Positions 1 through 51,444 of a DNA stretch of 64,000 nt are shown piece after piece. Below the pieces are notes generated by a model. That model had not been told where the DNA came from. It did not search any database and saw only the letters and a list, made by a program, of their open reading frames with translations. A program made the position numbers and the translations under genes. The stretch covers positions 15,445 through 79,444 of the forward strand of contig PLZG01000093.1 in NCBI GenBank assembly GCA_003152075.1, in the 5' to 3' direction. Numbering within the stretch: the stretch's first letter is position 1; each line of letters opens with the position of its first letter. Origin of the DNA: a candidate division FCPU426 bacterium (GTDB lineage: Bacteria > Oederibacteriota > Muellerivitia > Muellerivitales > Muellerivitaceae).

Positions 1-270
1 ATAATACTCGTCCTCGTGCATGGTCAAGACCACAACCGCCAAGTGGGGCCGGTCCTTGAAGACCTCCACGGCCACGCGGGGCCCGGGAATATCAGGAAGG
101 CTGATATCCAGCAAAAGCACGTCCAGGGGCATTTGGGCGGCGGCCTTGATGGTTTCCAGGCCCGTGCCCGTTTCCCCAACGACGATAATATCAGTTTCCT
201 TCTCAAGCAAAACCTTAAGGCCGCTGCGAAACACGGCGTGGTCGTCGGCGATCAGGACGCGGATAGACAT
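1..270 (-). CDS. NarL/FixJ-family response regulator, receiver domain only (C-terminal HTH lies beyond the window start; partial)
   Basis: Reverse translation from the ATG at 268-270 reads MSIRVLIADDHAVFRSGLKVLLEKETDIIVVGETGTGLETIKAAAQMPLDVLLLDISLPDIPGPRVAVEV..., a typical REC domain with acidic pocket. It sits immediately downstream of, and overlaps the stop of, the HisKA_3 kinase, which is the classic NarXL-type pairing. It runs off the window edge, so no ORF was called in the track. Confidence 0.7.
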   Translation of the reverse strand, partial: MSIRVLIADDHAVFRSGLKVLLEKETDIIVVGETGTGLETIKAAAQMPLDVLLLDISLPDIPGPRVAVEVFKDRPHLAVVVLTMHEDEYY

Positions 271-3487: not shown

Positions 3488-3564
3488 GAAGAGGGCATAC
3501 GGTGAGCCACTATAAAAGTGGCCCACTAAAAAATCTTAGATTCAAACTAACCAAGGAGTCGTTT

Positions 3565-3957
3565 ATGAAAAATCATCTCAGAGAACATGCAGGATTCGCC
3601 GCGATATTCTTTTCGCTGGCCCTATTCCTCCTGGCCTTTTCTGTGGCCCGGAGCGAGGATTTGGCCGCCGGCAAGAAAATCTTCGAGGGAAAATGTGCCC
3701 AATGCCATGGCAAGGACGCCAAGGGCGTGGTCAAAATGGCCAAGGTTCTAAAAGTGGAACCTGTGCTGATTGACCTTACCCGTGACGAGGCGGTCAAGCT
3801 ATCCAATGCGGACAAGGTAAAAACCGTAACCGAAGGCAATAAAAAGATGCCGAAATACAAAGGAAAACTCACAGATGAACAGATTGGACAGGTAGTCCAA
3901 TATCTGGAATCATTGCAAGGGGCTGGAAAAAAAACTAATAAAACAAAAGCTCGATAA
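3565..3957 (+). CDS. Periplasmic monohaem class-I cytochrome c (paralogue 1 of 3)
   Basis: RBS AAGGAG precedes the ATG at 3565. Signal peptide is followed by CAQCHGKDAKG (CxxCH) and a downstream Met ligand (KKMPKY). It is about 60% identical to ORF 4247..4603. An intrinsic terminator follows. Confidence 0.85.
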   Translation: MKNHLREHAGFAAIFFSLALFLLAFSVARSEDLAAGKKIFEGKCAQCHGKDAKGVVKMAKVLKVEPVLIDLTRDEAVKLSNADKVKTVTEGNKKMPKYKGKLTDEQIGQVVQYLESLQGAGKKTNKTKAR

Positions 3958-4048: not shown

Positions 4049-4246
4049 ATCGGGAGGTCATTTTTAGCAAGTATTCCAACAGGAGCGGATCACCCCAAGG
4101 CCAGGAAAAAGGGGTTTTGTTTAGTGTCAAGGAAAAGGCGGAGATTTAATTCCACTTTTTCTTAGGTTAAATGGGCAGAGTCTTGAAAATCCATGGGCAT
4201 CAAGCGATGATGACCCAGATTTTGAAAAGACAAACAGGGAGGACTT

Positions 4247-4603
4247 ATGCGCTGGTTTTTATTACTGGTTGGCGGCTTGATTCTTATTGCAGGAAACAAT
4301 GTTTGGGGCGCGGAAACCGCTGATCCCGGCAAGAAGCTTTTCGAGTCCAAGTGCGCCCAGTGTCACGGGAAAGACGCAAAAGGCCAACCCAAGATGGCAC
4401 CCGTCCTCATGGTAGAGCCGGCATTGATCGACTTAACGAGGGCCGACGCAGCCAAACTTTCCTTTGCCGAAAAAGTCAAAATTGTGACCAACGGGAAAAA
4501 TAAAATGTTGAAGTTCAAGAAAAAACTGACGGACGAACAGATTCAACAAGTGGTTAAATACGTGGAATCACTTCAAGGAGTTAGTGCCGGAAAGAAAAAA
4601 TAA
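4247..4603 (+). CDS. Periplasmic monohaem cytochrome c (paralogue 2)
   Basis: Signal peptide, CAQCHGKDAKG, Met ligand (NKMLKF). RBS GGGAGG sits upstream and a terminator downstream. Confidence 0.85.
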   Translation: MRWFLLLVGGLILIAGNNVWGAETADPGKKLFESKCAQCHGKDAKGQPKMAPVLMVEPALIDLTRADAAKLSFAEKVKIVTNGKNKMLKFKKKLTDEQIQQVVKYVESLQGVSAGKKK

Positions 4604-4633
4604 TTTTTTCGCCAACCTCTTTCCATCCAACAG

Positions 4634-4666
4634 AAAGACCGGTCCCGGACCGGCTTTTTGTTTTTA
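4634..4666 (+). terminator. Rho-independent terminator after cytochrome c paralogue 2
   Basis: GACCGGTCCcGGACCGGC hairpin followed by TTTTTGTTTTT. Confidence 0.6.
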
Positions 4667-4836
4667 GCCAACCGTTTAAAATATTGTTTAGTTCGTCGTT
4701 TATATGTGCTGCGTCATATTGAACATCTGGTGGACATTTTAAAATTTCTTAACTTAGGCGGGGTTTCGACCCGTTTGATTTTAAACACAACGAGCGGAAA
4801 ATTTTATTCTGTTCGGCCATTATCAAGGAGGTTCGC

Positions 4837-5229
4837 GTGATGAATTTCAGGATAAAACACGCTTGTGTTTTTTCAGTTTTCACTCTCTTGTCTTTTTTAA
4901 TCCCCGCCCTTTCCCGGGCTCAGGGAAGCAACATGGAGTTTGGAAAAAAATATTTCGATGGGAAATGCGCCCGTTGCCATGGAAAAGACGGGGCAGGAAA
5001 CCCCAAGATGACCCAATTATTAAATACCGATTTGAAAAAAATAAATCTTCATCGAGACGAGATCCGCCATATGTCTGTCATCCAAATCGAGGCGATAATC
5101 GACAGCGGCAAGCATCGGATGCCGAAATACGGTGGAAAATTAACGGATTCACAAATCCATGATATAGCCTCCTACGTTAAATTTTTGATCAGAAACGAAG
5201 CCAAGAAGGAAGAAAAGACATCTAACTAA
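4837..5229 (+). CDS. Periplasmic monohaem cytochrome c (paralogue 3, more divergent)
   Basis: Signal peptide, CARCHGKDGAG, Met ligand (HRMPKY). It has its own AT-rich promoter region and RBS AAGGAGG. It is followed after 10 bp by the Rieske gene, so it is probably co-transcribed with the bc complex. Confidence 0.8.
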   Translation: MMNFRIKHACVFSVFTLLSFLIPALSRAQGSNMEFGKKYFDGKCARCHGKDGAGNPKMTQLLNTDLKKINLHRDEIRHMSVIQIEAIIDSGKHRMPKYGGKLTDSQIHDIASYVKFLIRNEAKKEEKTSN

Positions 5230-5239
5230 GGAGAGATTA

Positions 5240-5743
5240 ATGTGCCCGTCCGATAATAAACCGAATCAACCCGAAAACCCCCAACGCCGGACGTTTCTCA
5301 TCGCCCTCATCACGGCTATGGGTGGATTCATCAGCTTTGTTTTGGGCGGTTCCGGCCTTTTTTATTTCCTCTCCCCCGCCTGGCGGAGCAAAAAGGAAGA
5401 TTGGGTGGAAGTAGGTCCGGTGGACAGCGTAAAAGAGGGCGACCCGGTTAAACTGGATTACGTCAAACGCAAGATGGACGGCTGGAATGTTATCGAGAGC
5501 CCCAGTTCCGTATGGGTAGTCCAACAAAAAGGAGAGTGGGTTGCCTATGACCCCCACTGCACCCATTTGGGCTGTCCTTACCGCTGGGATGCTTCCAAAC
5601 AGGCTTTTCTCTGCCCCTGTCACGGTGGGGTTTTCACTAAAGATGGCAATGTAGTCTCCGGGCCCCCTCCCAAACCCCTGAATCGCTTCCCCGTGAAGGT
5701 CGAGGGCGGGACCATTTACGTCCTGCCGGAGGGGATCGCCTAA
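5240..5743 (+). CDS. Rieske [2Fe-2S] iron-sulfur subunit of a cytochrome bc/b6f-type complex
   Basis: N-terminal TM anchor. Rieske boxes CTHLGCP and CPCHGGVF. RBS AAGGAGAG. The stop overlaps the start of the cytochrome b gene (ATGA). Confidence 0.85.
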   Translation: MCPSDNKPNQPENPQRRTFLIALITAMGGFISFVLGGSGLFYFLSPAWRSKKEDWVEVGPVDSVKEGDPVKLDYVKRKMDGWNVIESPSSVWVVQQKGEWVAYDPHCTHLGCPYRWDASKQAFLCPCHGGVFTKDGNVVSGPPPKPLNRFPVKVEGGTIYVLPEGIA

Positions 5744-7374
5744 TGAAAACTATTCTCGATTGGCTCGACGAACGCACCGGCTGGCGCAAAATCAAGGAAG
5801 TCATCCTGGACCGGCATATCCCCAAGGGTGTGGACTGGCGTTACACCCTAGGAAGCGTCACTCTTTTCTTCTTCGTTCTACAAGTAGTCACCGGCATCCT
5901 TTTGGCCATGCATTACTCCCCCTCCCCCGATCATGCCTATGACTCGGTAAAGTACCTTTCGAAGGAAGTCCCAATGGGGGGCTTCTTGAGGAGTTTACAC
6001 AAATGGGGCGCCACAGGAATGGTGGTGACGGTGTTCCTGCATATGCTTCGGGTGTTTTTCATGGGGGCCTATAAGTATCCCCGGGAAGTCACATGGCTCT
6101 CCGGAATCCTTCTCTTTTTCTTTGTGATCGGTTTTGGGTTTACCGGTTATCTTCTCCCCTGGGACCAGAAAGCCTATTGGGCCACCACCGTGGGCGCCCA
6201 TATGGTGGAACAAGTTCCTTATTTTGGCGCTGGCCTGGCGAAAATCATGAAAGGCGGCCAGGATTTGGGCGCCGTCACCTTGGCGCGGTTTTATGCCATC
6301 CACGTGCTGGTTTTCCCCGCCTTGACTCTCCTCTTCATGGTTATCCATCTTTTCCTGGTGGTTTGGCACGGAATCTCCGCTCCACCGGAGCGCGAAACTC
6401 CTTCGACCGATCGCAGGGATCCGAACTGGAAAACCCGCCTTCAGGCCCGCTACCTGGAACTCAAGTCCCAGGGAAAATCTTTCTGGCCCTATATCATCTT
6501 TAAGGACACCGTGGCGGTTACCTTGGTCTTCCTCATTGTCCTAGGCGTAGCCCTGTGGAAAGGTGCGGAGCTGGAGGATTTGGCCAACCCCACCGACACT
6601 ACCTATAACCCCCGGCCCGAGTGGTATTTCCTTTCGGTATTCCAATTGCTGAAATATTTCCCCGGCAAACTGGAAGCTTTCGCCATCGTCCTGTTGCCGC
6701 TGATTGTCGTCACACTATTGTTCGCCCTCCCCTTCCTGGATAAAGGGCCCCGGAGGCACCCGGCCGACCGCAAATGGCTGGTGGCGGCCGGTTGGATGGC
6801 CGTATTGGGTTTAATCGTTTTGACAGTCCAAGGCGCCTACACGCCCTTGACCAATCCCGTCGGCGAAAAAAACCCAATGGTCATGGAAGGAAAGCGTCTT
6901 TACGGAGACCTCCACTGCGAGTATTGCCACACCTTGCACGGCCACGGAGGAACAGTTGGCCCGGTCCTGGATGAAGTCGGCATACGCCGCAACCAGGATT
7001 GGCTGGCCAACCACTTCCGAAACCCCAAAAAAGTAACGCCTGGAACCAAGATGCCCAACTTCAATCTTTTGGATGGCGAGGTGGAATCCCTGGTGGCTTA
7101 CATGAGCACCTTGGGGGCGGGAACATTCACGGCGAAGGCCCCAGGGCTCTTCGAGGAAAACTGCGCTACCTGTCATAAATTCCATGGGGTAGGCGAGGAA
7201 ATCGCTACCGATTTGACCCATATCGCGGGAGTTCGGGACGCCGATTACATCGCGGCTTATATCAAGGATCCTATCAAGTTGAATCCCGATGCCGCCATGC
7301 AGGGCTTTTCCGACCAATTGACCGCGGACCAGATTAAGGACTTGGCCAATTACCTGTACCAGCAGGGTAAATAA
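5743..7374 (+). CDS. Cytochrome b (b6 plus subunit-IV-like) with fused C-terminal dihaem cytochrome c domain
   Basis: Eight predicted TM helices with paired His ligands in helices B/D (..HYSP.., ..LHMLRVFF.., ..HVLVFPAL.., ..HLFLVVWHG). The C-terminal ~170 aa carries two CxxCH motifs (CEYCH, CATCH). This domain is paralogous to the stand-alone dihaem cytochrome 49136..49798. Confidence 0.85.
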   Translation: MKTILDWLDERTGWRKIKEVILDRHIPKGVDWRYTLGSVTLFFFVLQVVTGILLAMHYSPSPDHAYDSVKYLSKEVPMGGFLRSLHKWGATGMVVTVFLHMLRVFFMGAYKYPREVTWLSGILLFFFVIGFGFTGYLLPWDQKAYWATTVGAHMVEQVPYFGAGLAKIMKGGQDLGAVTLARFYAIHVLVFPALTLLFMVIHLFLVVWHGISAPPERETPSTDRRDPNWKTRLQARYLELKSQGKSFWPYIIFKDTVAVTLVFLIVLGVALWKGAELEDLANPTDTTYNPRPEWYFLSVFQLLKYFPGKLEAFAIVLLPLIVVTLLFALPFLDKGPRRHPADRKWLVAAGWMAVLGLIVLTVQGAYTPLTNPVGEKNPMVMEGKRLYGDLHCEYCHTLHGHGGTVGPVLDEVGIRRNQDWLANHFRNPKKVTPGTKMPNFNLLDGEVESLVAYMSTLGAGTFTAKAPGLFEENCATCHKFHGVGEEIATDLTHIAGVRDADYIAAYIKDPIKLNPDAAMQGFSDQLTADQIKDLANYLYQQGK

Positions 7375-13707: not shown

Positions 13708-14310
13708 TTAAATTAAATAGACCAAAAAGAAAAGAATGGGCCAAAGGCCGACCACGAAAAACCAATACATCCGGCAAAGCTCCACTCCCAGCGTGTTTTG
13801 GGCACTGTACTTCTCCTTCCATGCCTTATTCAAGACCCAAAGCAAGGCGATAAGGCCGCCCGTCACATGGACCGCGTGGATTCCCACCAGGCAATAGAAA
13901 AAACCGCCGAAGATGCTGGCGTGGACGGTGAGCCCGAAATGAAGAAGGCGGACCCATTCCGCCCCTTGGACAGCCAGGAAGATAAATCCCAAAACCGCCG
14001 TGGCTGTCAACAACCCCTTGAACAATTGGCTATTGGAGGCCTTGAGGGGTTTGAGGGCCAGAAAAAACGTGAGCCCGCTTAAAAGAAGGATCAATGTGTT
14101 CGCGGAGGTGACTTCCAGGGGGAGGCGAGGTTGGCCCGGTGGGGGCCAGGGCACGGGGCTGAAACGGAACATCACAAAGGAACTGATGAGCCCTGAGAAG
14201 AACATGATTTCGGCGATGATAAATAGGATGATTCCAAGCCTGGCTGGTTCCATGCGGCGATCGGAGGCTGGCCCGGCGGAAGGCCCCGAGCCGGAAACCG
14301 GCCCGTCCAT
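13708..14310 (-). CDS. Cytochrome c oxidase subunit III, paralogue 2
   Basis: Five or more TM segments. Subunit III signatures (..FF..GIHAVHVT.GLIALL..). The start was moved to an internal Met to avoid overlapping the upstream coxD. Confidence 0.75.
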   Translation of the reverse strand: MDGPVSGSGPSAGPASDRRMEPARLGIILFIIAEIMFFSGLISSFVMFRFSPVPWPPPGQPRLPLEVTSANTLILLLSGLTFFLALKPLKASNSQLFKGLLTATAVLGFIFLAVQGAEWVRLLHFGLTVHASIFGGFFYCLVGIHAVHVTGGLIALLWVLNKAWKEKYSAQNTLGVELCRMYWFFVVGLWPILFFLVYLI

Positions 14311-14311
14311 A

Positions 14312-14614
14312 TTAGAAGAACCTTCGAAGGAAATTGATCGAGAAGTGACAGACGTCGGGAATAAACAAGACAAGAAGGATGCCGAACAAGATGAAGGGGA
14401 TGATCATAATCCAATAGATGAGTTTTCCCTCCGATTTCAGGTCCATGTACTGGAAAAAGACCAGCCCAGCCATCACGAAGGCAATTGCGAAGATAGCAAC
14501 GTTGTTGGTCACGATGGGCAAATGGAGGAAAGTCACCCCTACCGCCGAAAGAGCCATCACCACAAGCACTGAAAATATCATCGTATGGTTATTGGAAGCC
14601 GTGGTTGAGTTCAT
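14312..14614 (-). CDS. Cytochrome c oxidase subunit IV, paralogue 1
   Basis: Three-TM 100-aa protein, paralogous to 12925..13224. Confidence 0.65.
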   Translation of the reverse strand: MNSTTASNNHTMIFSVLVVMALSAVGVTFLHLPIVTNNVAIFAIAFVMAGLVFFQYMDLKSEGKLIYWIMIIPFILFGILLVLFIPDVCHFSINFLRRFF

Positions 14615-14629
14615 TGATTCCTCCTGGGG

Positions 14630-15256
14630 TTAAGCTAAAAGATAAAGCATCGGGAACAGGAAAATCCAGACTACTTCAACGAAAGACCAGTAAATACCCG
14701 TAATGGCCACCCGGCCTTTCCAATTCCCCATCGATCCCGTTAAAGCCCTATTCAAGAGCAGGCCCAGAGCAACCAATCCACCCAGAATGTGGGTAGCGTG
14801 GATTCCTGTCATCAGGAAATAAAAGGACCAGAAACCACCGCTAGTGGGAAATTCACCATGAGCGAACTCAGCTGTGTACTCGAAAGCCTTAACGCCTAGA
14901 AAAAGCACACCCATGGCCATGGTCAGGACTAGGTACTTCTTGACGTTATCGTTGTTTTCCGCCCCTGCCGCACCAGAGGCTTTCATCATGAAAAAATTGC
15001 TGACGAGAAGAACCAACGAGTTAAGAGTGCCGGCGACCAGGTTCAGGTGTCGAGCCTCTTCGGACCACTCGGGATGAATCATGCGCATGAGGATGAAGGA
15101 ACCAAAGAGCCCCGCGAAAAGGACAATTTCGGAGGCGATCAGTGCCCAAATACCCAGCCGGCCCGCGGTCAATCCCGCCGGCGCCGAATTGTAACCTTCA
15201 GGACCCTCATTCTCGGGATAGTGGGGTGTCAATGGCAGGTTGGCGCTTTTATCCAT
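14630..15256 (-). CDS. Cytochrome c oxidase subunit III, paralogue 1
   Basis: Subunit III signatures (..FFMTGIHATHILGGLVAL..). Start set at MDKSANLP (ATG 15254-15256), just after the coxA stop. Confidence 0.8.
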   Translation of the reverse strand: MDKSANLPLTPHYPENEGPEGYNSAPAGLTAGRLGIWALIASEIVLFAGLFGSFILMRMIHPEWSEEARHLNLVAGTLNSLVLLVSNFFMMKASGAAGAENNDNVKKYLVLTMAMGVLFLGVKAFEYTAEFAHGEFPTSGGFWSFYFLMTGIHATHILGGLVALGLLLNRALTGSMGNWKGRVAITGIYWSFVEVVWIFLFPMLYLLA

Positions 15257-16943
15257 GGACCGTTTCTCCTTTGATGTTACTAGCTTGGGAATGCCAATCC
15301 TCGGATTCCCCGGGCTTGCTGTACTCGTAAGGACCACTCGTCACCACCGGAAGAACCGGTCCCCAGTTGCCATGGGGCGGGGGCGAATCGGCAAGCCATT
15401 CCAGGGTGTTGGATTGGTAGGGATTTTTCCCCGCTTTCGGACCGTGGTTCATGCTGAGGACGAGGTTCCAAAGGAAGACGGATTGCGAGGCAATCAGTGA
15501 AATGGCGCAAATCGTGGCGAATATATTCCAATTGGCGAACTGGTGGTACTGGGGATAAAAGGACGGATCAGCTATACGGCGGATCATGCCGCCGATACCC
15601 ACCCTGAATAAAGGCCAGAATGTGCCGTTGAAGAAGATGAAAGTAAGCGCCAAGTGCAACAGGCCCAGCTTCTCGTTGAGCTTGCGGCCGTACATCTTGG
15701 GGAACCAATAGTAAACCGCCGAAAAGCCCCCGAAGAAAACCGAGGGGAATAGGGTGTAGTGGAAGTGAGCCACCACGAAATAGGTGCCATGAAGGTAGAT
15801 ATCGACGGAGGCCGAACCCAAGAAGATGCCGGTCAATCCCCCGACCAGGAAGGTGGCAAGGAACCCTAGCATCCAAAGCATGGGCACCTCCAGGCGGATG
15901 GACCCGTGCCGAAGAGTGGCTAACATACAGAAAATGATGATGGCGAAGGGAATTGAAATGAGGATAGTGGTGATCGAGAAGGGCGTGGCCAGGATCGGGT
16001 TCAAGCCCGACAGGAACATATGATGGGCCCAAACGATGAAGCTCAGAAGGATGGCAGAAACCGTGCTCCACAGGATGAGTTTATAGCCAAAAATGGGCTT
16101 GCGGGTGAAGGTGGCCATTATGTCCAACCCCATCCCCAGGGCCGGGAAGAAAAGTACGTAAACCTCCGGATGGCCGAAGAACCAGAAAAGATGTTCCCAC
16201 AACATCGGCTCACCACCTTTGGCGGGCAGGAAGAAACCGGTGCCGAACATGTTGTCCATGATGAGCATAAAATCGCCAGCGATGAGCGGTCCCACCGAGA
16301 AAAAGAAAGTTACGGCGGAGGCTAGGAGAAACCAAACAGTCATGGGAATACGGGAATAGGTCATGCCCTTCGCGCGAAGGGTAATGGCCGTAACCAGGTA
16401 GTTCAAGCCGCCCAGGCTCGAGGAGAAAAAGGCCATAGCAAGAGCAAGCAGCCACAGGCACGCCCCCCACTTGACACCGGCGAATTCGGAGCTGGCGGAC
16501 AAGGGCGGATAACCTACCCAGCCTCCGGCCACCGGACCGCCCGGGACGAAAAAGGATGCAACCAATAACACGGCTCCGGCGAAAGTTAACCAGAAAGAAG
16601 CCATGTTCAGCTTCGGAAAAGCCATATCCCGCGCACCGATCATCAAGGGAATAAAAAAATTGGAGGGAAATGCCGACAAGAAAGGCATTCCCACGAAGAA
16701 GATCATAATGGTACCGTGCAAGGTGATGATGGCGTTGAACTTGTCCGGCGAAACCAGCCCAAAGAAAGGCGCCGGGACGTTGGGAAATGCCACTTCCCAA
16801 CGGATCAGGTAGGCCATGAACCCGCCCAAACAGGCCATGATAGTGGAGAGCAAAAGAAACTGCTTGCCGATCATCTTATGGTCGGTCGAAAAAATATAGT
16901 GGCTGATGAAACTCTGCTTGTGTTCGTGGGCGTCTTGGCTCAT
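15249..16943 (-). CDS. ctaD: Cytochrome c oxidase subunit I (haem-copper oxidase, A-family)
   Basis: 564 aa, 12 TM. Conserved WFFGHPEVY, the HH pair and other haem a / CuB ligand motifs. The start overlaps the coxB stop (ATGA). Confidence 0.95.
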   Translation of the reverse strand: MSQDAHEHKQSFISHYIFSTDHKMIGKQFLLLSTIMACLGGFMAYLIRWEVAFPNVPAPFFGLVSPDKFNAIITLHGTIMIFFVGMPFLSAFPSNFFIPLMIGARDMAFPKLNMASFWLTFAGAVLLVASFFVPGGPVAGGWVGYPPLSASSEFAGVKWGACLWLLALAMAFFSSSLGGLNYLVTAITLRAKGMTYSRIPMTVWFLLASAVTFFFSVGPLIAGDFMLIMDNMFGTGFFLPAKGGEPMLWEHLFWFFGHPEVYVLFFPALGMGLDIMATFTRKPIFGYKLILWSTVSAILLSFIVWAHHMFLSGLNPILATPFSITTILISIPFAIIIFCMLATLRHGSIRLEVPMLWMLGFLATFLVGGLTGIFLGSASVDIYLHGTYFVVAHFHYTLFPSVFFGGFSAVYYWFPKMYGRKLNEKLGLLHLALTFIFFNGTFWPLFRVGIGGMIRRIADPSFYPQYHQFANWNIFATICAISLIASQSVFLWNLVLSMNHGPKAGKNPYQSNTLEWLADSPPPHGNWGPVLPVVTSGPYEYSKPGESEDWHSQASNIKGETVHG

Positions 16944-17626
16944 TGGGCTCCTCCATGTTCTTCTTTATCTTTTGCGGCAAGCCAATCATCAAAAGTTTTT
17001 TGGTCGTCCACCTGCAAAACTCCTGTCATACGGGTATGGCCGAAACCACAGATTTCGTCGCAAACCAAATGAAAAGTTCCCACTTGGTTTGTGTCAAACC
17101 AGCCATTGATCAGCCGAAGGGGCATGACATCCTGCTTCAAGCGCACCTCGGGCAGGAAAAAATCATGAATGACATCCAGGGAAGTCATGATGATGTGGAT
17201 TTTCTTACCGACCGGCACATGCAATTCGCGGTAGGAGGAAATCGCCGCAGGAGTATCGAACTTACCATCCTTATCGGGATAAAAGAAAGTCCAGTCAAAC
17301 TGCTTGGCTTGCACCTTTACCGTAATATCACAGGGCGGCAGGTCTTCTTTAACATCAGCCCAAGTCTTGCCTCCCCGGAAGTCGAGGAACAGATCAATTC
17401 CCAGGATGATGACGGAAAAAACGATGATCCATTGGATTTGGACCCAAGTATCACCCGTCTCATACTTAGCGGTTGTCCCCTTCTTTTGGCGGTATCTGAC
17501 CACCAAGAAAACAAGATAACCTTCCATTACAACGAAGAAGAACCCAGTGATGTAATAAATCAGTTTTAGCATATTGTCGATATCAGGAGCGAATGACGAG
17601 AGTGACAGGGGCAGGGCATCAAGCAT
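16940..17626 (-). CDS. ctaC: Cytochrome c oxidase subunit II (CuA, no fused cytochrome c)
   Basis: Two N-terminal TM helices. Cupredoxin domain with CuA motif H...CDEICGFGHTRM (C-x3-C-G-x2-H-x2-M). First gene of the operon coxB-coxA-coxC-coxD-coxC'-orf-coxD'. Confidence 0.9.
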   Translation of the reverse strand: MLDALPLSLSSFAPDIDNMLKLIYYITGFFFVVMEGYLVFLVVRYRQKKGTTAKYETGDTWVQIQWIIVFSVIILGIDLFLDFRGGKTWADVKEDLPPCDITVKVQAKQFDWTFFYPDKDGKFDTPAAISSYRELHVPVGKKIHIIMTSLDVIHDFFLPEVRLKQDVMPLRLINGWFDTNQVGTFHLVCDEICGFGHTRMTGVLQVDDQKTFDDWLAAKDKEEHGGAQ

Positions 17627-43025: not shown

Positions 43026-43089
43026 CGGACACCATCAAAGTTGCTTGGCTTTGTCCGTCCCACCCCGCTATGGCGTCCACGCCATAGCG
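43024..43089 (+). terminator. Two hairpins downstream of plsC, including the perfect palindrome CGCTATGGCG-tcca-CGCCATAGCG
   Basis: GACGGACAC...GTCCGTC (43024-43059) and the 10-bp perfect stem at 43066-43089. No strong T-run, so this is a weak terminator or a protein-binding site. Confidence 0.35.
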
Positions 43090-43212: not shown

Positions 43213-43232
43213 TATATGACATCTGTCATATA
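43213..43232. promoter_or_regulatory. Perfect 20-bp palindrome TATATGAC-atct-GTCATATA about 67 bp upstream of the cupredoxin operon
   Basis: 8-N4-8 inverted repeat with TGAC-N4-GTCA core. It is the best-conserved instance of the motif found upstream of both RIC genes and pirin. Confidence 0.5.
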
Positions 43233-43298
43233 GAGATAAATGAAGCGGGGATATCTTTCTGGCAGCCGAACTCAGTTTTTAATAAAAGGAGATTTCCA

Positions 43299-43997
43299 AT
43301 GAAGCTTAAAAAAAGTTTAATAAAAGCCGGAAGCAAAAAAACTCTTCGGACTTTATTCGGCGAGCTGTCCATCGGATTGGGGCTGAGCCTCTTCCTGGCC
43401 TCTTTCGCTTTCGCTGGGGAAGGTGCCACAGTATCCGGAAACATCCAAGTGAAGAAAGCCTACGTGGAAACCACCGGGGCCAAGAGCGACAAGGACGTGG
43501 TGGTTTACCTGGTGTCGGCTGAGAAAGGCGCTTCAGCGGCCCCCGTCGAACACGCCAAAATGAACCAAAAAAACCTCGTTTTCGTACCTCACGTTCTGGC
43601 AGTTCAAAAGGGCACCACCGTCGATTTCCTCAACGAGGACGCCGTCAACCATAACGTCTCTTCCCCCGCCGCCTGCTGTTCCTTCGACCTGGGCCAATGG
43701 GGCAAGGGAGTGACAAAAAGCTATAAGTTCGACTCGACGGGCGTGGCTCCCCTCCTTTGCAGCCTGCATCCAGAAATGGCCGCCTCGGTAGTGGTTGTCG
43801 ACACCCCCTATTACACGACGGCCTCCCTTATCACCAACAACGCGGAAAAAAAGCAATCGGCCAAGTACTCCATCAAGGGCGTTCCAGCGGGTGATTACAC
43901 CTTGAAGGTATGGAATGGCAAGTTGGTAGCCGCCGATCAAAAGGTGACCGTCACCGCGACCGGCGCCAAGGCTGATATCGACATCCACAAGAAGTAA
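43299..43997 (+). CDS. Periplasmic type-1 (blue) copper cupredoxin with C-terminal carboxypeptidase-regulatory-like (Ig-like) domain
   Basis: RBS AAAGGAG 7 nt before the ATG. Signal peptide. T1Cu ligand set: His (..NEDAVNHNV..) then C-x2-H-x2-M (CSLHPEM, amicyanin/pseudoazurin-like spacing). The C-terminus has a GDYTLKVWNG beta-sandwich motif. Confidence 0.6.
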   Translation: MKLKKSLIKAGSKKTLRTLFGELSIGLGLSLFLASFAFAGEGATVSGNIQVKKAYVETTGAKSDKDVVVYLVSAEKGASAAPVEHAKMNQKNLVFVPHVLAVQKGTTVDFLNEDAVNHNVSSPAACCSFDLGQWGKGVTKSYKFDSTGVAPLLCSLHPEMAASVVVVDTPYYTTASLITNNAEKKQSAKYSIKGVPAGDYTLKVWNGKLVAADQKVTVTATGAKADIDIHKK

Positions 43998-44024
43998 TCG
44001 GGAAAACCGTAAAGGAGAGCGGCC

Positions 44025-44564
44025 ATGGACTTCACGAATAAAGGCAAATGGATTTCGGCGGTGCTGGTGGTGGTGGCAGGGCTGACCCTGCCGGCCTTCA
44101 CCACGCCGGCCGCTCCCAAACCCGAGCGCCGCGACTTCAGCATCGTGGCCCGCAAGTACGCCTACGACCCCCCGATCATCAAGGTCAACCAGGGGGACGA
44201 GGTGCACGTAAAATTCGCTTCTCGGGACGTGACCCACGGATTTTTCATGGAAGGCTACGATGTCGAAGCCCTTTCCGAGGCCGGCAAATCCACCATCCTC
44301 TTCCGGCACCCTTCGATGACGGGTAACTTCACCCCCGCCGACGAGATCATCTTCACTGCCGATAAGCGCGGTAAATTTCGTTATCGCTGTTCCATGACTT
44401 GCGGCTATATGCACCCCTTCATGTTGGGAGTAATGATCGTGCAGCCCAATTCCCTTTTCGGCCAGGCCCTGGGGCTCATGACCGGAATCCTGCTGGCTGG
44501 CTTCATCCTGGTTTGGCCCGCGGGTAAGATCACCCCGAAAGCGCCGGAAGGAGCCCGCTCATGA
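44025..44564 (+). CDS. Membrane-anchored stand-alone CuA-type cupredoxin (COX2-like copper centre, no haem)
   Basis: N-terminal TM. Cupredoxin domain with His (VTHGF) and CSMTCGYMHPFM, which matches the binuclear CuA signature C-x3-C-G-x2-H-x2-M exactly. C-terminal TM. The stop overlaps the next start (ATGA). Confidence 0.55.
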   Translation: MDFTNKGKWISAVLVVVAGLTLPAFTTPAAPKPERRDFSIVARKYAYDPPIIKVNQGDEVHVKFASRDVTHGFFMEGYDVEALSEAGKSTILFRHPSMTGNFTPADEIIFTADKRGKFRYRCSMTCGYMHPFMLGVMIVQPNSLFGQALGLMTGILLAGFILVWPAGKITPKAPEGARS

Positions 44565-45028
44565 CCCGCAAACTTGAGGAACTCTCCCCTAAGGAAATGC
44601 TGGCCCTGGCCATTTCCATCGAGCAGTCCAACCAAAAGGCCCTGCATAACTTCTCCGAGATGTTCAACGGATATGACGATCAGGTTTCCAAGAATTTCGC
44701 GGAAATGTCCGTGGAGGAAGGCCGCCACGAGCAGATCTTACTGGAAAAATTCAAGAACATGTTCAAGGGGCCTGTTCCGGAAATAAGTAACTTCGACGTT
44801 GAGGAAGTGGTTGAAGCCATTGACTTTGACGACTCCGAGCACTTGATCTTCGACAGCTTGAAGGCCAAGCAAGTTTACCAATTGGCTTACGAGGCCGAAA
44901 AAAGGGCCAAGAGTTTTTACGAGAAGGCCATGAAAACCGTGAAAAACAAGGAATTGGCAGTGCTATTCAAGGAACTGGCCGCAATGGAAGGCGATCACGC
45001 GAATTGGCTGGAAAACAAAATCAAGTAG
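44561..45028 (+). CDS. Rubrerythrin/ferritin-like diiron protein (cytoplasmic)
   Basis: Two E...ExxH half-sites (..IEQ..EEGRH.. and ..EAEKRAK..EGDH..) in a ~150-aa four-helix-bundle-sized protein. No signal peptide. Confidence 0.6.
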   Translation: MTRKLEELSPKEMLALAISIEQSNQKALHNFSEMFNGYDDQVSKNFAEMSVEEGRHEQILLEKFKNMFKGPVPEISNFDVEEVVEAIDFDDSEHLIFDSLKAKQVYQLAYEAEKRAKSFYEKAMKTVKNKELAVLFKELAAMEGDHANWLENKIK

Positions 45029-45038
45029 GAGTGAAACC

Positions 45039-46568
45039 ATGAGTGAAGCCATCAACCCCAATCTAACTCCCCAATCCGTTCCAAGCCCGGTTCCCATACC
45101 CGCTGTCGTCCGGTCGGCCCCAACGCCGCTGACCCCTCCACCCGCCCGAGAGGGTTGGCGCATTGACCTTTTAAAGATGTTCCCCTTGCTCAAGTGGGTG
45201 GTGAAACAACGCTGGTTCCAGTTCGTGGTAATCCTTCCCAACCTATTCCTTTTCCTGGTCTTCTTGGCCGCCGGAATTTGGGGCACCCCGGTGGGCAACC
45301 GTAATATCTTGATCGTCTTCGTTTGGATTTTTTGGTGGTTCCTCCTCATCAGTGCCATGGTGCCCTTCCTTTCTCGCATTTGGTGCACCGTTTGTCCCTT
45401 CCCCTTCTTTGGAGAATGGATCCAACGTGGTTCCCTAACCACCCCCAAAATGGCCACTCCCGGCGCCAAAGGCACCAAGATTGGTATCAATCGCTATTTC
45501 GGTCTGAACCTGCGGTGGCCCAAGGCTCTTTCCAATATTTGGATGCAGAACATCGGTTTCCTCGGCCTTTGCACCTTCAGCGCCTTTTATCTCACCCGGC
45601 CCATCGTCAGCGTGATCGTCCTGGGCAGCTTGATCGTGGTGGCTACCGTGCTCCACGTGATTTATCGCCAAAGGGCCTTCTGCAATTACGTCTGTCCTGT
45701 CAGCGGTTTCTTAAGCCTTTATGCCATGAGTTCCATGACCGAGGTTCGTTCCAAGGATGCCGATGTCTGCCTGAAGTGCCACGACAAGAGCTGTCTGGTG
45801 GGAAGCGAGAGGGGTTGGGGATGTCCCTGGTTCAACTTCCCCAGCAAGATGGAACGAAATAACTATTGCGGCATGTGCATGGAATGCATTAAGTCCTGTC
45901 CCCATGACAACATGACTGTGAATCTGCGGCCCTTCGCCGCCGACACCAAACTCAAAGGCTACGATGAGGCCTGGAAGGCCTTTATCATGCTGGCCCTAGC
46001 CCTGGCCTACAGCGTCATTTACCTGGGCCCTTGGGCTTTTTTCAAAAACCTGGCCAACTACACCGAAAGCGGTGTGGGTCTTCCCGCCTTTATCGGCTAC
46101 GCCCTGGCCCTTTGGGCATTGCCTATGGTAATCATTCCGAGCATCTTCTCGGCATTCCACTGGATCGCGCGCAAGGTTGCTGGAGCCGAGCCGAAACCTT
46201 GGAAAGAATCTTTCCTACTCATGGCCTATCCCCTGGTTCCGCTGGGACTCTTGGCTTGGATCGCCTTCAGCGTACCCCTCATCTTTATCAACGGCAGCTA
46301 CATCCTGGTCACCATGTCCGATCCCTTTGGCTGGGGCTGGGACCTTTTCCATACAGCTCACACGGCCTGGTCGCCCGTCGTGCCTCAGTTGATGCCCACC
46401 ATCCAGGTCTTCATTATGGCCCTGGGGCTGATCCTCACCTTGAAATCGACTTTCAAACAAGCCGGGAAGGTTTATGAGGACGCCAAAGCCAAGGTGCGGT
46501 TCGCCGCCCCCATGGCGATTTTTTACACCGCCATCGTGCTGTTATTCATCCAGCTTTACGTGAACTGA
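45039..46568 (+). CDS. NapH/MauN/CcoG/NosR-C-like polytopic membrane protein with two [4Fe-4S] ferredoxin motifs
   Basis: Two membrane CxxCP motifs (IWCTVCPFP, FCNYVCPVSG), the hallmark of the NapH family. A soluble loop carries CLKCHDKSC...CPW and CGMCMECIKSCP cluster-binding motifs. About 10 TM helices. Pro-rich N-terminus. Confidence 0.65.
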   Translation: MSEAINPNLTPQSVPSPVPIPAVVRSAPTPLTPPPAREGWRIDLLKMFPLLKWVVKQRWFQFVVILPNLFLFLVFLAAGIWGTPVGNRNILIVFVWIFWWFLLISAMVPFLSRIWCTVCPFPFFGEWIQRGSLTTPKMATPGAKGTKIGINRYFGLNLRWPKALSNIWMQNIGFLGLCTFSAFYLTRPIVSVIVLGSLIVVATVLHVIYRQRAFCNYVCPVSGFLSLYAMSSMTEVRSKDADVCLKCHDKSCLVGSERGWGCPWFNFPSKMERNNYCGMCMECIKSCPHDNMTVNLRPFAADTKLKGYDEAWKAFIMLALALAYSVIYLGPWAFFKNLANYTESGVGLPAFIGYALALWALPMVIIPSIFSAFHWIARKVAGAEPKPWKESFLLMAYPLVPLGLLAWIAFSVPLIFINGSYILVTMSDPFGWGWDLFHTAHTAWSPVVPQLMPTIQVFIMALGLILTLKSTFKQAGKVYEDAKAKVRFAAPMAIFYTAIVLLFIQLYVN

Positions 46569-46583
46569 AAAGGGAGGATCAAC

Positions 46584-47552
46584 ATGAAATTCAGGGAAAT
46601 TATCTCCAGCGTCCTCGCGGTAGTGGCCGTGGTCGGGGCCTTCGCCATCCCCTTTGCTTACCAGAAGCAAAGAATGACCAGTGACCATAATGTGCGGACA
46701 ATCACCTTGACCGGTTTGGCCCCGCAAGGCATTTGGACCCAGGATGAGGTTAACGGCGGCAACTATTGGAAAGCCCATTTCAAACCCGCCGAGCTCAACC
46801 TTAAGGCGGGCGAACAGATCCGTCTGATCCTTCGCAGTGCCGACGTAGTCCACCGCTTTTACATGCCCCAATTGGGAATCGGCCCTATTGAGCTTGTTCC
46901 CGGCCATACCGAGGTGGTCAATTTCAAAGCCGACAAGGAGGGAATCTATCCTTACTACTGTACAGCTGTCTGCGGAGATTGCCATTTCCACATGCTAAAC
47001 ATGAGGGGATTGGTTGCCATCGGGAAAGAGATCGACACCAAAACCGCCCCCATCATCAATGAGCCTCTTTGCATGGTGAATATTACTTCGGACCTGCCTT
47101 CCTTCACGGACATCACCCAAAAGGGACATTTCCTGTTCCAAACCAGGGGTTGCGTCACTTGCCACGGGGTCGATGGCGCGGGAGGAATCCCCAACTTCAA
47201 TTACGTACGTGGTACCGTTCCGGCTTTGAACACCTTGGCCTCCAAGATGTCCCTGGGTAGCAAGGATGAAGTGGAGGCCTTTACTAAAGCCCTGGAAATA
47301 AAAGAAGGGCCCGCGAAGGACAAACCCGAACCAGGGCTCTCCAATTGGCCGCTTTCTTTCGCCCAGTATCAGTCGGTTGTAAAAACCATTGAGGGTGGCA
47401 GTCCGCCCTTGAAGGCTGACCCGAATGGGCCCGAACCTCCCCTTTTTATGCCGAGCTGGAAGGAAAACCTCGACCACGAACAGATCAATTCGATAATCGC
47501 CTTTCTTATCTCAGAGCAGAAGTTCGAGGAACACACGGGCTGGGGAAACTAG
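46584..47552 (+). CDS. Cytochrome oxidase subunit II-like CuA protein with fused C-terminal monohaem cytochrome c (caa3-type subunit II architecture, orphan)
   Basis: Single N-terminal TM. CuA signature H(RFYMP)...CTAVCGDCHFHM. C-terminal CVTCH plus Met ligand (LFMPSW). No subunit I gene is adjacent. Confidence 0.7.
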   Translation: MKFREIISSVLAVVAVVGAFAIPFAYQKQRMTSDHNVRTITLTGLAPQGIWTQDEVNGGNYWKAHFKPAELNLKAGEQIRLILRSADVVHRFYMPQLGIGPIELVPGHTEVVNFKADKEGIYPYYCTAVCGDCHFHMLNMRGLVAIGKEIDTKTAPIINEPLCMVNITSDLPSFTDITQKGHFLFQTRGCVTCHGVDGAGGIPNFNYVRGTVPALNTLASKMSLGSKDEVEAFTKALEIKEGPAKDKPEPGLSNWPLSFAQYQSVVKTIEGGSPPLKADPNGPEPPLFMPSWKENLDHEQINSIIAFLISEQKFEEHTGWGN

Positions 47553-47632
47553 TAGAATCTCGTCGGTAACCGGGCGCGGGTGGCGCGCTAATTAAAGCTG
47601 AACAGTAAATTTGTAACCTTGGGAGGGTGTAA

Positions 47633-49012
47633 ATGAGTAATCGTTCAATAAAAGCGATCCTGATCGGGATTTTAGGATGTATTGGTTTGATTGTCTGCGC
47701 GGCTCCCGCCCAGGCATTGCCAACCTTTGCCCGGCAGACAGGCATGTCCTGCGCGGCCTGCCACACGGTTTATCCCGAACTGACGACTTACGGGAGAACC
47801 TTCAAGCTCAACGGCTACACCACCAACAATTCCGATTCACTCAAGGACGGTGCGGATGAGACGGGGTACCGGTTGAATATCAGCAACACTCCCCCGATCG
47901 CGGCCATGCTTCAGGTTGCCGACGTATTTACCCATGCTCCTCAAACAGGCGGTTTAGTGGCCGCCAACTCGGATAACAACGGCACTTTGGAGTTTCCCAG
48001 TCAGTTCAGTCTTTTCTACGCGGGAGCCATCTCCCCGAAGATGGGGGCCTTCGTCCAGTTTACTTACGACTCTGGCTCAGGCTCTTTTGGCATGGACAAT
48101 ACGGACATCCGTATTGCCGACCGTTTTCAAGTGGCCAACACCGATCTGGTCTTGGGCTTAACCCTCAATAACAATCCCACCGTACAGGATATTTTTAACA
48201 ACATTCCGGCTTGGGGCTTCCCCTATGCGACAGGCAAATCGGCCATTACTCCCGCAACCGCCAGCATGATCGAGAGTCTGGGTGGTAGTGTCGGAGGATT
48301 GGGTCTTTACGCCTTTTGGAACCAGCTTTTATACGCTGAAATTTCAGCATACCGCACGGCTCCCCAAGGCATGGAAGCCGTGGGTGCCCCAGACATCCAG
48401 GGTTACGCTCCTTATTGGAGGGTGGCTTTGACCAAGGATTTCGAGACCAATTCCTTTGAAATCGGCGCTTTCGGGATGAACGCTAATACTTATCCAAACA
48501 GCGGGGATCCCACTCTGTTCACTCAAAATAATGTGGACGATATTGGGGTAGACGGTCAGTTCCAGTTCGTGGGCAAGGAACATCAATTGACGGTCAAAGG
48601 AAGTTGCATTTGGGAAAACCAGAAATTGGGCTATTCCAGTCCTGTAACGGTTATCGACCCCAGCGGACCGACGACCACCATCAGCTCAGTCGCGGCCAAT
48701 GCTACCGACACCTTCACGACCGCCAAGGCGGATATCACCTATTATTACGACCGTAAAGTCGGGGCAACGGTGGGCTATTTCACCAACTATGGTTCCGGCG
48801 ACACGGGCCTTTATTCCACCGCCAGCGGAACACCCGATAGCGCCGGCTGGGTGATCGAGGTGAATTACGTGCCTTGGTATAACACGAAATTCTCCTTGCA
48901 ATACACTATGTACGATAAGTTCAACGGTTCCGTGAATAATTACGATACCGTCCCTGGCCGTAACGCTTCGGATAACAACACCCTAATGGCAATGGCTTGG
49001 TTGATGTACTAA
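47633..49012 (+). CDS. cyc2: Cyc2-like fused monohaem cytochrome / outer-membrane beta-barrel porin (paralogue 2)
   Basis: Signal peptide. CxxCH (CAACH) within ~15 aa of the mature N-terminus. The N-terminal motif LPTFARQTGMSCAACH..TYGRTFKLNGY parallels VPMFARMYSYNCTMCH..KFGYNFRAAGY of the gene at 2219. The ~400-aa G/T/N/Y-rich barrel ends ..AWLMY. Confidence 0.6.
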   Translation: MSNRSIKAILIGILGCIGLIVCAAPAQALPTFARQTGMSCAACHTVYPELTTYGRTFKLNGYTTNNSDSLKDGADETGYRLNISNTPPIAAMLQVADVFTHAPQTGGLVAANSDNNGTLEFPSQFSLFYAGAISPKMGAFVQFTYDSGSGSFGMDNTDIRIADRFQVANTDLVLGLTLNNNPTVQDIFNNIPAWGFPYATGKSAITPATASMIESLGGSVGGLGLYAFWNQLLYAEISAYRTAPQGMEAVGAPDIQGYAPYWRVALTKDFETNSFEIGAFGMNANTYPNSGDPTLFTQNNVDDIGVDGQFQFVGKEHQLTVKGSCIWENQKLGYSSPVTVIDPSGPTTTISSVAANATDTFTTAKADITYYYDRKVGATVGYFTNYGSGDTGLYSTASGTPDSAGWVIEVNYVPWYNTKFSLQYTMYDKFNGSVNNYDTVPGRNASDNNTLMAMAWLMY

Positions 49013-49037
49013 TCTCTCTTTCAATTTTTCAGGAGAG

Positions 49038-49072
49038 AAGGCCGGGTTCCATTGGAATCCGGCCTTTTTTAT
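49038..49072 (+). terminator. Rho-independent terminator after cyc2-like paralogue 2
   Basis: AAGGCCGGGTTCCattgGGAATCCGGCCTTTTTT. Confidence 0.65.
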
Positions 49073-49135
49073 TATGACCGCTATCATCTTTTCCCTTACC
49101 TTTCAGACTAAAATGGATCTATCAGGGAGAGTTCA

Positions 49136-49798
49136 ATGGCACTAAACAAGATGACTGTCCCAAATGAAAAAAAGCGGTTCTTCACACCCTTATTAATAGA
49201 ATGGCTGGGGGCCTTGGTTTTATTCTCCTTACTCGCCCCTTCCTTAGCCTTGCCCCCGGCCCAAACTACCCCGGTAAATTCAGTCCACAAAAAAGACCCC
49301 CTTGTCTTGAAAGGCAAACAGCTTTACGCCGACTTGAGGTGCTTTTACTGCCACAAACTCAAGGGTCGGGGTGGTACGGTCGGCCCAGCCCTGGACAACG
49401 TGGGTTTCAGGCGCACCCAGGAATGGATGGCCCACCACTTCCGTGATCCCAAGGAAGTCTCTCAGGGAACCAAAATGATCAACCTCAAGCTGAAAGACAG
49501 CCAGGTTCAGGCCCTGGTGGCTTACATGAATAGCCTGGGAGGCTATACCTTCACCCCCCAAGCTCCGGATCTTTATAAAGCTAACTGTGCCGCTTGTCAT
49601 TCCCTCAACGGCGAGAGCGCGAATGCCACCGACTTGTCCAAGGAAGGAAAATTCCGGGATGTGGACTTCCTCATGGATTACATCCGGGATCCCGCCAACG
49701 TGAACTCGGAGGCCAAAATGATAAAATTTGAGGGTGTTTTGACCGAAGCCCAAATCAAGGATATCGCCGCTTACCTTTACAAGCAGAGCCGCAAATAA
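49136..49798 (+). CDS. Periplasmic dihaem cytochrome c (c4-like)
   Basis: Signal peptide; CFYCH and CAACH. About 45% identical over its length to the C-terminal domain of the cytochrome b at 5743..7374 (shared ..KGRGGTVGPALDNVGFRRTQEWMAHHFRDPKEVSQGTKM..). Confidence 0.8.
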   Translation: MALNKMTVPNEKKRFFTPLLIEWLGALVLFSLLAPSLALPPAQTTPVNSVHKKDPLVLKGKQLYADLRCFYCHKLKGRGGTVGPALDNVGFRRTQEWMAHHFRDPKEVSQGTKMINLKLKDSQVQALVAYMNSLGGYTFTPQAPDLYKANCAACHSLNGESANATDLSKEGKFRDVDFLMDYIRDPANVNSEAKMIKFEGVLTEAQIKDIAAYLYKQSRK

Positions 49799-49974
49799 AG
49801 GCGGTTTTCAATCCGCTAAATGATCTGGATCATATTCCCCTTTTCCGCGAAACATTAGGATACAACCTGTATTGCAGTTCGGGACCAAAACCCCGAGCTT
49901 GAACGGCGGAAAAGTATCAAATAAAAAAGGAGGCGGTCTTAACCAAAGTTAAAATCGACTCTGTTGGAATTTGG

Positions 49975-50015
49975 AAAACAAGGCCGGACCTGGCAAGGCT
50001 CCGGCCTTTTCTTTT
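49975..50015. terminator. Bidirectional intrinsic terminator
   Basis: aaaacaAGGCCGGAcctggcaaggcTCCGGCCttttctttt, flanked by an A-run upstream and a T-run downstream. Confidence 0.6.
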
Positions 50016-50121
50016 AAGGAGCCTTTCTTTTACTTTTATACCTTTTGGGAAGCCTTGGAATTTTTCAATATTTGAATCACTTCCCAATCACTGACCGGTC
50101 GGAAGTCCTCGAAGAATTCCC

Positions 50122-50709: not shown

Positions 50710-51444
50710 CTAATCTAAAAAACCCATCTGATTGGCCCGCTTCAAGAGAATGTTATTCTCCAAGTGGAGATGTTGAATGTTGTCTTTTTCCAGTTCCAGG
50801 AGGGCATCATAAAGGGGCTGGAGCATCATCCGCCTGGATTCGGGCGCGCGAAAATGGTCGGTGAGCCGGTCGATTTCCTTCCATTCCCTGTCCGTCATTC
50901 CATGCTCCCACTCCAACACGCGCAAGGGATGGTTGAAGGAGTCGTATTTACTGAAAGTTTGGGGAAGGGGCCGGTCGTGCAGAAGGCACTGTTCTGCTTC
51001 AATTAAGTAAGGAAAGACCACCTCTTCTTCGCGCCTCAAGTGGTTCTCCATTTCATCGGCCATAGTGTTGAAAAGACTATGGATGGTGGCTAGTTCGGGG
51101 GGCGGCCCCCCGGGACCCGTAACCACCTTATACATCAGACCTTTGACACGCCTCATTTGGGACCGAGCGTAGGTGTGGTGTTTCTTGAGGATGTAACCGA
51201 TCAGCTCAGCTAGTGGTTCCTGTCGCCAGTCCCGCTCCTTATACCATTCCTTTGGGGCAGGCTCGATTTTTTCCAGGGCCTCGGTAACCTCCTCCAATGG
51301 GATGCCGACGTAATAACAAGCGTCTTTCAAAGTCCGACCGCCCTCACAGCAATAGTCGATCCCGAATTTCTCGAATAGGGGGATGGACTCCTTCATTTCC
51401 ACCGCAATTTCAGCGACGCTTTGGGATGGATTAATCTTCGCCAT
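50710..51444 (-). CDS. ytfE: Iron-sulfur cluster repair di-iron protein (RIC/YtfE family), paralogue B
   Basis: N-terminal ..FEKFGIDYCCEGG.. ScdA_N motif plus a hemerythrin-like domain. Collinear with 21463..22206. Confidence 0.8.
   Translation of the reverse strand: MAKINPSQSVAEIAVEMKESIPLFEKFGIDYCCEGGRTLKDACYYVGIPLEEVTEALEKIEPAPKEWYKERDWRQEPLAELIGYILKKHHTYARSQMRRVKGLMYKVVTGPGGPPPELATIHSLFNTMADEMENHLRREEEVVFPYLIEAEQCLLHDRPLPQTFSKYDSFNHPLRVLEWEHGMTDREWKEIDRLTDHFRAPESRRMMLQPLYDALLELEKDNIQHLHLENNILLKRANQMGFLD

Follow-up and report, generated by a model that had tools for sequence, protein, structure and literature searches.

Cyc2 pathways and the locus under study

In Acidithiobacillus ferrooxidans, Fe(II) is oxidized by a supercomplex in which electrons pass from Cyc2 to rusticyanin, then to Cyc1 and finally to an aa3 oxidase, and Cyc2 serves more widely as an iron-oxidation marker in genome and metagenome surveys. 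Here we examine a six-gene operon, g1 to g6, that ends in a predicted Cyc2 gene. It lies in a 64,000-nucleotide stretch of contig PLZG01000093.1 (GenBank assembly GCA_003152075.1, positions 15,445 to 79,444 of the forward strand), referred to below as the window. The five genes ahead of the Cyc2 gene are predicted to encode a type-1 cupredoxin, two CuA-domain proteins (one of them fused to haem c), a ferritin-like diiron protein and a NapH-like membrane polyferredoxin. The component families are known, but no account seems to exist of the module or of its Bacteroidota form with Cyc2. Searches of PMC and bioRxiv returned no description of this gene combination, in agreement with a first-pass annotation of the DNA, made from its letters alone, that had not recognized it as a described system.

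With the rus operon of A. ferrooxidans the locus shares an outer-membrane Cyc2, a periplasmic blue-copper protein, a CuA protein of the subunit II type, a dihaem cytochrome c4 nearby and a chain proposed to be reversible. It does not reproduce the arrangement that defines the rus operon, in which cyc2, rusticyanin, coxB, coxA/C/D and cyc1 form one unit. The module has neither a subunit I nor a subunit III, its cupredoxin is of the amicyanin/pseudoazurin type and not a rusticyanin, and its c4 gene stands outside the terminator. It adds a second CuA protein, the NapH-like polyferredoxin and the cytoplasmic diiron protein, and its hosts are Bacteroidota, Acidobacteriota and Planctomycetota. The neutrophilic pathways of the Zetaproteobacteria and Gallionellaceae, to which Cyc2PV-1 belongs, have the Cyc2 family, its motif and its porin architecture in common with the module, but their relay is built from c-type cytochromes whereas that of the module would be built from copper proteins, and g6 falls in a Bacteroidota clade of Cyc2. 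A type-1 cupredoxin next to a membrane ferredoxin of the NapH/MauN type is also known from the mau cluster (amicyanin MauC with the MauN/MauM ferredoxins); the module differs from it in having no methylamine dehydrogenase and in adding the CuA proteins and Cyc2.

Operon architecture

The features of the locus are collected in Table 1. Genes g1 to g6 follow one another on the + strand with gaps of 27, -4, 10, 15 and 80 bp, as expected from the earlier description of six translationally tight genes, and the two terminators of that description were both recovered. The first has a 17-bp GC-rich stem followed by U6AUU and is rated very strong. We are fairly confident that g1 to g6 constitute one co-transcribed module for electron transfer across the cell envelope. 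Translation of g1 truly starts at the ATG at 43299, ahead of a signal peptide, and not at the TTG at 43041.

Table 1. Predicted features of the module and its surroundings. Positions count from the first nucleotide of the window.
Feature	Position	Strand	Basis
Six-gene operon, g1 to g6	within 43213-50015	+	Open reading frame spacing, terminator
Perfect 20-bp inverted repeat	43213..43232	.	Sequence; 67 bp 5' of g1
g1, periplasmic type-1 cupredoxin	43299..43997	+	Pfam Copper-bind 1.6e-6; PDB sequence relatives
g2, C-tail-anchored periplasmic CuA-domain protein	44025..44564	+	Cupredoxin_1, NosZ/CoxB CuA matches
g3, cytoplasmic ferritin-like diiron protein (rubrerythrin/MbfA N-terminal type)	44561..45028	+	Pfam Rubrerythrin 3.7e-14; NCBIfam MbfA 8.8e-18
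g4, NapH/MauN/CcoG-like membrane polyferredoxin	45039..46568	+	TIGR02163 27.9 bits, Fer4_5, hydropathy
g5, CuA protein with one transmembrane segment and C-terminal haem c (CtaC-c-like)	46584..47552	+	Pfam COX2 4.4e-9, Cytochrom_C 2.9e-9
g6, Cyc2-family outer-membrane cytochrome-porin	47633..49012	+	Motif per PMC8406198; AlphaFold2; Foldseek; 3466 homologues
Intrinsic terminator closing the six-gene operon	49029..49080	+	Fold -28.5 kcal/mol, z -5.2, U-tract
g7, dihaem c4 (Cyc1-like)	49136..49798	+	Pfam/NCBIfam; two CxxCH
Second terminator, 3' of g7	49980..50017	+	Fold -21.6 kcal/mol, z -2.1
ScdA_N plus hemerythrin protein (YtfE-like)	50710-51444	-	
Canonical aa3 oxidase, complete	13708-17626	-	
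Second Cyc2-like cytochrome-porin (P0122)	2219-3487	+	AVPMFARMY, CTMCH, 422 amino acids, aromatic C-terminus
Monohaem cytochrome c	3502-3957	+	
HAMP/HisKA_3 sensor histidine kinase	252-1850	-	

The inverted repeat upstream of g1 is of the form 9-2-9, TATATGACA-TC-TGTCATATA, with TGACA-N4-TGTCA at its core. It had been taken for a CRP/FNR-type site. The repeat itself is real and perfect over its 20 bp, but the assignment to CRP or FNR does not hold, as it fits neither the CRP (TGTGA-N6-TCACA) nor the FNR (TTGAT-N4-ATCAA) consensus. It is absent 5' of the g1 homologues in the two loci whose upstream regions were compared (L001 and L006), and the genome holds a single copy of it, about four chance matches being expected for its 12-bp core. 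A promoter scan of the upstream region gave no consensus promoter worth noting. The lack of conservation of the palindrome would be compatible with the six genes being chance neighbours that form no functional unit, but the synteny maintained across phyla (see below) leaves that explanation next to no probability.

Cyc2 and the copper proteins

The first-pass annotation had assigned each of the six products: g1 as a periplasmic type-1 cupredoxin, g2 as a haem-free membrane CuA protein with an exact C-x3-C-G-x2-H-x2-M loop, g3 as a cytoplasmic rubrerythrin-like diiron protein, g4 as a NapH/CcoG-like polyferredoxin membrane protein, g5 as a COX2-like CuA plus haem c protein with no subunit I, and g6 as a Cyc2-like cytochrome-porin. 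Profile and structure searches bore out all of these family-level assignments, and refined several of them.

The Cyc2 family has been defined by the motif AXPXFAR[Q/K][T/Y], an N-terminal CXXCH and PXL (Keffer et al. 2021, PMC8406198). The g6 product carries ALPTFARQT, then CAACH, then PEL, which fits AxPxFARQT-CxxCH-PxL; it is 459 amino acids long, against at least 365 for Cyc2, and its C-terminal residue is aromatic. An AlphaFold2 model computed from a 30-sequence alignment (predicted local distance difference test score 75.8, predicted template modelling score 0.76) places 16 long beta strands after an N-terminal helical/haem region. Foldseek matched this model to general porins (OmpF, OmpT and Omp-Pst) with E values of approximately 1e-8, and a sequence search of the PDB found no solved structure matching g6. 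Judged by every sequence and structure criterion that could be applied, the predicted g6 protein is a member of the Cyc2 family.

Beyond the first terminator, g7 encodes a predicted dihaem c4-like cytochrome, as had been noted. Because its product matches (51-55% identity) the c4 cytochromes that adjoin Bacteroidota Cyc2s outside the module, g7 is, by sequence, a gene that repeatedly accompanies Cyc2 in Bacteroidota and not a core gene of the module.

The window also holds a second, distant Cyc2-like cytochrome-porin, P0122, whose branch in the Cyc2 tree is long. A monohaem cytochrome c gene follows that of P0122, and a sensor histidine kinase gene lies upstream (Table 1).

A CuA site, in the sense of a His followed by a C-x3-C-(G)-x2-H-x2-M loop within a cupredoxin fold, is predicted in g2, in g5 and in all of their homologues. 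The g2 loop reads CSMTCGYMHPFM and its pattern is kept in every homologue compared. The protein has an N-terminal signal peptide, a C-terminal anchor and no haem motif, and its PDB relatives are the CuA domains of COX2. The ligand loop of g1 is CSLHPEM (C-x2-H-x2-M), which is amicyanin-like, and is followed by a C-terminal fn3-like beta-sandwich. A rusticyanin identity was considered for g1 and set aside, since its PDB matches are pseudoazurin, amicyanin and NirK domains.

The remaining CuA protein, g5, resembles the caa3 oxidase subunit II (CtaC with fused cytochrome c) in that a c-haem domain, with one CxxCH, comes after its CuA domain. Other features set it apart from CtaC. It scores 63 bits against the CoxB model TIGR02866, for which the cut-off is 148, and its identity with the caa3 CtaC-c subunits of the host genome itself is only about 26%. 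A single N-terminal helix, the only transmembrane segment in the hydropathy profile, takes the place of the COX2_TM pair, which a Pfam search did not find, and no haem-copper subunit I is encoded in the g1-g6 operon. The family is rare, with 44 proteins matched. In the Bacteroidota lineage the CuA loop of g5 contains an extra conserved Cys (C-x3-C-G-x-C-H-x2-M). This residue was considered as a general feature of g5, but it is absent from three loci outside that lineage (L075, L076 and L077) and is hence lineage-specific. The extra Cys (CGDCH) makes the loop readable as CxxCH as well, and the CuA-only COX2 of a Planctomycetota locus (L079, see below) has an extra Cys too (CGPCH).

It had also been suggested that g5 assembles or feeds a subunit I in trans, and this part of the earlier reading was not sustained. 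Every haem-copper oxidase subunit I in the genome (two caa3, one aa3) has a subunit II of its own, to which the low identity of g5 can be added. Of the five or six subunit I genes, each is either paired or of the NorB type; as none is left without a partner, g5 is not the missing subunit II of an orphan subunit I.

The polyferredoxin and the diiron protein

Like NapGH, CcoG and MauN, g4 is a predicted membrane polyferredoxin with [4Fe-4S] motifs, and it belongs to a family of approximately 1082 proteins. It is 509 amino acids long with about nine transmembrane segments, extra membrane helices distinguishing it from those proteins, and its ferredoxin Cys motifs lie at residues 215-287. Its partners are CuA proteins and not NapG, and its score on the NapH model (Table 1) is far below the trusted cut-off of 213, so that it can be called NapH-like only and does not qualify as a NapH quinol dehydrogenase.

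The likeness of g4 to CcoG and NapH, together with the many copper sites in the module, would also suit a role in copper-protein maturation. There g4 would act as a Cu(II) reductase, as CcoG does in cbb3 oxidase biogenesis, and so help to load the CuA and type-1 sites. However, chaperones of the Sco, PCuAC or Cox11 kind are missing, g5 pairs with no subunit I, and the copper proteins of the module are themselves carriers; we consider a maturation role improbable.

The g3 product consists of the diiron domain only, with no rubredoxin domain, no Cys and no signal peptide, and so differs from a full rubrerythrin, in which the diiron domain is joined to a C-terminal rubredoxin domain. Its relationship to the ferritin domain of the iron exporter MbfA and to rubrerythrin would fit a function in stress or metal homeostasis, in which oxidation or binding of Fe(II), perhaps also of Cu(I), at the cell surface and in the periplasm limits Fenton chemistry and metal overload, g3 handles cytoplasmic iron or peroxide, and energy is not conserved. 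A YtfE-like hemerythrin repair protein encoded nearby and the Cus efflux systems that adjoin related genes in one other locus (L076) point in the same direction. Against this, the operon itself contains no metal transporters, and its dedicated electron-carrier architecture exceeds the needs of detoxification, which makes such a function quite unlikely.

Conservation and spread of the module

Comparison of gene order, which the first-pass annotation had proposed as a check, revealed the exact order g1-g6 in eight Bacteroidota genomes of one family and on one contig of a metagenome-assembled genome (MAG). Acidobacteriota, Planctomycetota and contigs from metagenomes have rearranged versions. In L075, a genome of the Acidobacteriota, the order is cupredoxin, Cyc2, cupredoxin, CuA protein, NapH-like protein and COX2 with haem c, and on a metagenome scaffold (L078) it is Cyc2, cupredoxin-fn3, CuA protein, NapH-like protein and COX2 with haem c. 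Since the order is kept in the eight Bacteroidota genomes and rearranged in other phyla, the genes very likely form a functional unit. Gene content and order describe the predicted module as conserved and moving horizontally between phyla.

The MAG contig, JAJPJW010000039.1 (L006/G065), is labelled 'Proteobacteria bacterium' at NCBI, yet it is the same contig as that of a GTDB genome placed in the Bacteroidota family of the window.

Among 99 Bacteroidota genomes, g5 was found solely where g6 occurs, in nine. Cyc2 itself is present in 21 of the 99, in some of them without the module (G073) or with the rubrerythrin gene only, and the module was absent at the loci examined around distant Cyc2 homologues of Proteobacteria and Campylobacterota. 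In the Cyc2 tree the Cyc2s of the Bacteroidota modules form one supported clade, and those of L075 and L078 fall in a distant long-branch group. This separation suggests that the copper relay became associated with more than one Cyc2 lineage. With module Cyc2s in at least two distant lineages, the pairing would have originated, or been retained, on several occasions. In Bacteroidota and Acidobacteriota, Cyc2 appears to pair with a copper relay in place of the relays of c-type cytochromes known to date.

The genomic contexts of the g4 family share a recurring core that consists of a CuA protein, g4 and a CuA/COX2 protein. In a Planctomycetota MAG (GCA_016190145.1; L079), a CuA protein, a rubrerythrin, a g4-like protein and a second CuA protein stand beside two MauG-like dihaem peroxidases. 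In another locus (L080) the core is accompanied by a cupredoxin, a dihaem cytochrome c and a standalone Cyc2-type haem domain. In L076 and L077 it is found beside TonB and Cus efflux genes, with no Cyc2. The earlier idea that Cyc2 is wired to the copper and NapH-like genes therefore stands insofar as the linkage recurs, but it was too narrow, for the core also occurs without Cyc2 and with other partners. For this reason Cyc2 is better seen as one of several input modules and not as an obligatory one. With about 1000 homologues, the core of CuA proteins and NapH-like polyferredoxin would be an uncharacterized electron-transfer system in its own right, and the CuA/polyferredoxin relays possibly represent a new family.

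Two further observations concern these loci. The core of L079 also adjoins a Rieske/molybdopterin enzyme. The haem domain of L080 (positions 4207-4524 of that locus) comprises 105 amino acids with the pattern AVPSFARRYQ…CQTCH…PKL, has no porin barrel and lies inside the CuA/polyferredoxin module.

Direction of electron flow

Our preferred reading, which we hold tentatively and at somewhat less than even confidence, is that the module provides a periplasmic copper relay carrying electrons from Fe(II) oxidation at Cyc2 to the respiratory chain. The haem of g6 in the outer membrane would accept electrons from extracellular Fe(II) and pass them to periplasmic copper carriers, namely g1, the cupredoxin, and the two CuA proteins anchored in the membrane, g2 and g5. 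From the haem c of g5 they would enter the respiratory chain, either at the aa3/caa3 oxidases or in the quinone pool by way of g4. The copper proteins would thereby stand in for the rusticyanin/Cyc1 or MtoD relay of other iron oxidizers, and g3, in the Bacteroidota form of the module, may be a partner that handles iron or peroxide at the cytoplasmic side of the iron-sulfur clusters of g4. We infer which way electrons flow, that Fe(II) is the substrate and which proteins are partners; the wiring follows from the predicted locations of the components. The Fe(II)-oxidizing direction is preferred by analogy with the Cyc2-rusticyanin-Cyc1-aa3 chain of Acidithiobacillus and because Cyc2PV-1 oxidizes Fe(II) in vitro (PMC8406198). 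It is consistent with the partner proteins, all of known electron-carrier types and predicted to be periplasmic or membrane-bound, and with the several terminal oxidases and bc complexes in the genome that could take up the electrons.

A number of observations weigh against a dedicated iron-oxidation relay. The host looks heterotrophic, is not a known iron oxidizer and has no multihaem cytochromes. The CuA/g4 core is also found without Cyc2, beside TonB, porin, Cus efflux, MauG-like or multihaem partners, and close relatives such as G073 carry Cyc2 without the module. Finally, proteins of the NapH family are quinol dehydrogenases that usually oxidize quinol, which favours electron flow in the outward direction.

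The last point leads to the reverse chain, in which quinol or NAD(P)H would reduce g4 and electrons would leave through the CuA proteins and the cupredoxin to Cyc2, which would reduce Fe(III) outside the cell or some other acceptor of high potential. Such a chain would resemble the reversed Cyc2-rusticyanin pathway by which Acidithiobacillus has been proposed to respire Fe(III) (PMC8790237). It would suit a heterotrophic host with no other Fe-oxidation genes, and the module occurs in peat metagenomes, Fe(III) reduction being thermodynamically easier in acidic peat. On the other hand, the only Cyc2s tested biochemically are Fe(II) oxidases (PMC8406198), and multihaem cytochromes for conduction to minerals are absent. 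We regard reverse flow as unlikely but as a serious rival; the homeostasis and copper-maturation roles discussed above are weaker rivals still.

A broader proposal goes beyond the inward relay from Cyc2, and we consider it rather doubtful. It holds that the loci represent widespread, undescribed copper-based conduits across the envelope with interchangeable inputs. In heterotrophic members of the Bacteroidota, Acidobacteriota and Planctomycetota, such conduits would couple the oxidation of extracellular Fe(II) directly to the quinone pool and to a diiron protein in the cytoplasm. The conduit core would consist of a CuA-domain protein, a large NapH-like polyferredoxin and a second CuA protein, sometimes fused to haem c, and its inputs would be Cyc2, standalone Cyc2-type haem domains, TonB/porin or MauG-like partners. 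If this doubtful proposal were true, it would mean that a route of iron oxidation has gone unrecognized in groups that are not classed as iron oxidizers. Should the Cyc2-linked relay prove real, lineages never regarded as iron oxidizers may oxidize (or reduce) iron in peat and soil, and Cyc2-based surveys would need to consider the copper relay.

Host genome, habitat and neighbouring genes

The host genome (4.1 Mb in 114 contigs, 99.97% complete) encodes 37 proteins with a C-terminal sorting domain of the type IX secretion system, on the basis of which the host was placed in the Bacteroidota. Its canonical cox operon is located apart from the module, as had been stated, and corresponds to the complete aa3 oxidase in Table 1. 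Contig 12 carries genes for CtaG and for a caa3 oxidase in which COX1 and COX3 are fused, and a second caa3 lies on contig C1 (approximately 4060-7224). The subunit I gene of the latter is split into two open reading frames, with one TGA inside, and could be a pseudogene or reflect a sequencing error. In addition, contigs C12 and C1 encode two NOR-like proteins of 727 and 818 amino acids in which NorC and NorB are fused (cytochrome c plus COX1 fold), and the genome has three cytochrome b genes of the bc type. A search of the host genome found no multihaem cytochromes.

Among the listed matches to the operon there are no RNA datasets, and all are DNA metagenomes, namely several from peat as well as permafrost and soil. 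Iron oxidizers bearing Cyc2 inhabit iron-rich peat, for example Sideroxydans CL21 (PMC12442390), and the presence of the operon in peat counts in favour of the Fe(II)-oxidizing reading. On the 3' side the module is adjoined, on the opposite strand, by the gene for the ScdA_N plus hemerythrin protein, whose YtfE-like relatives repair iron centres.

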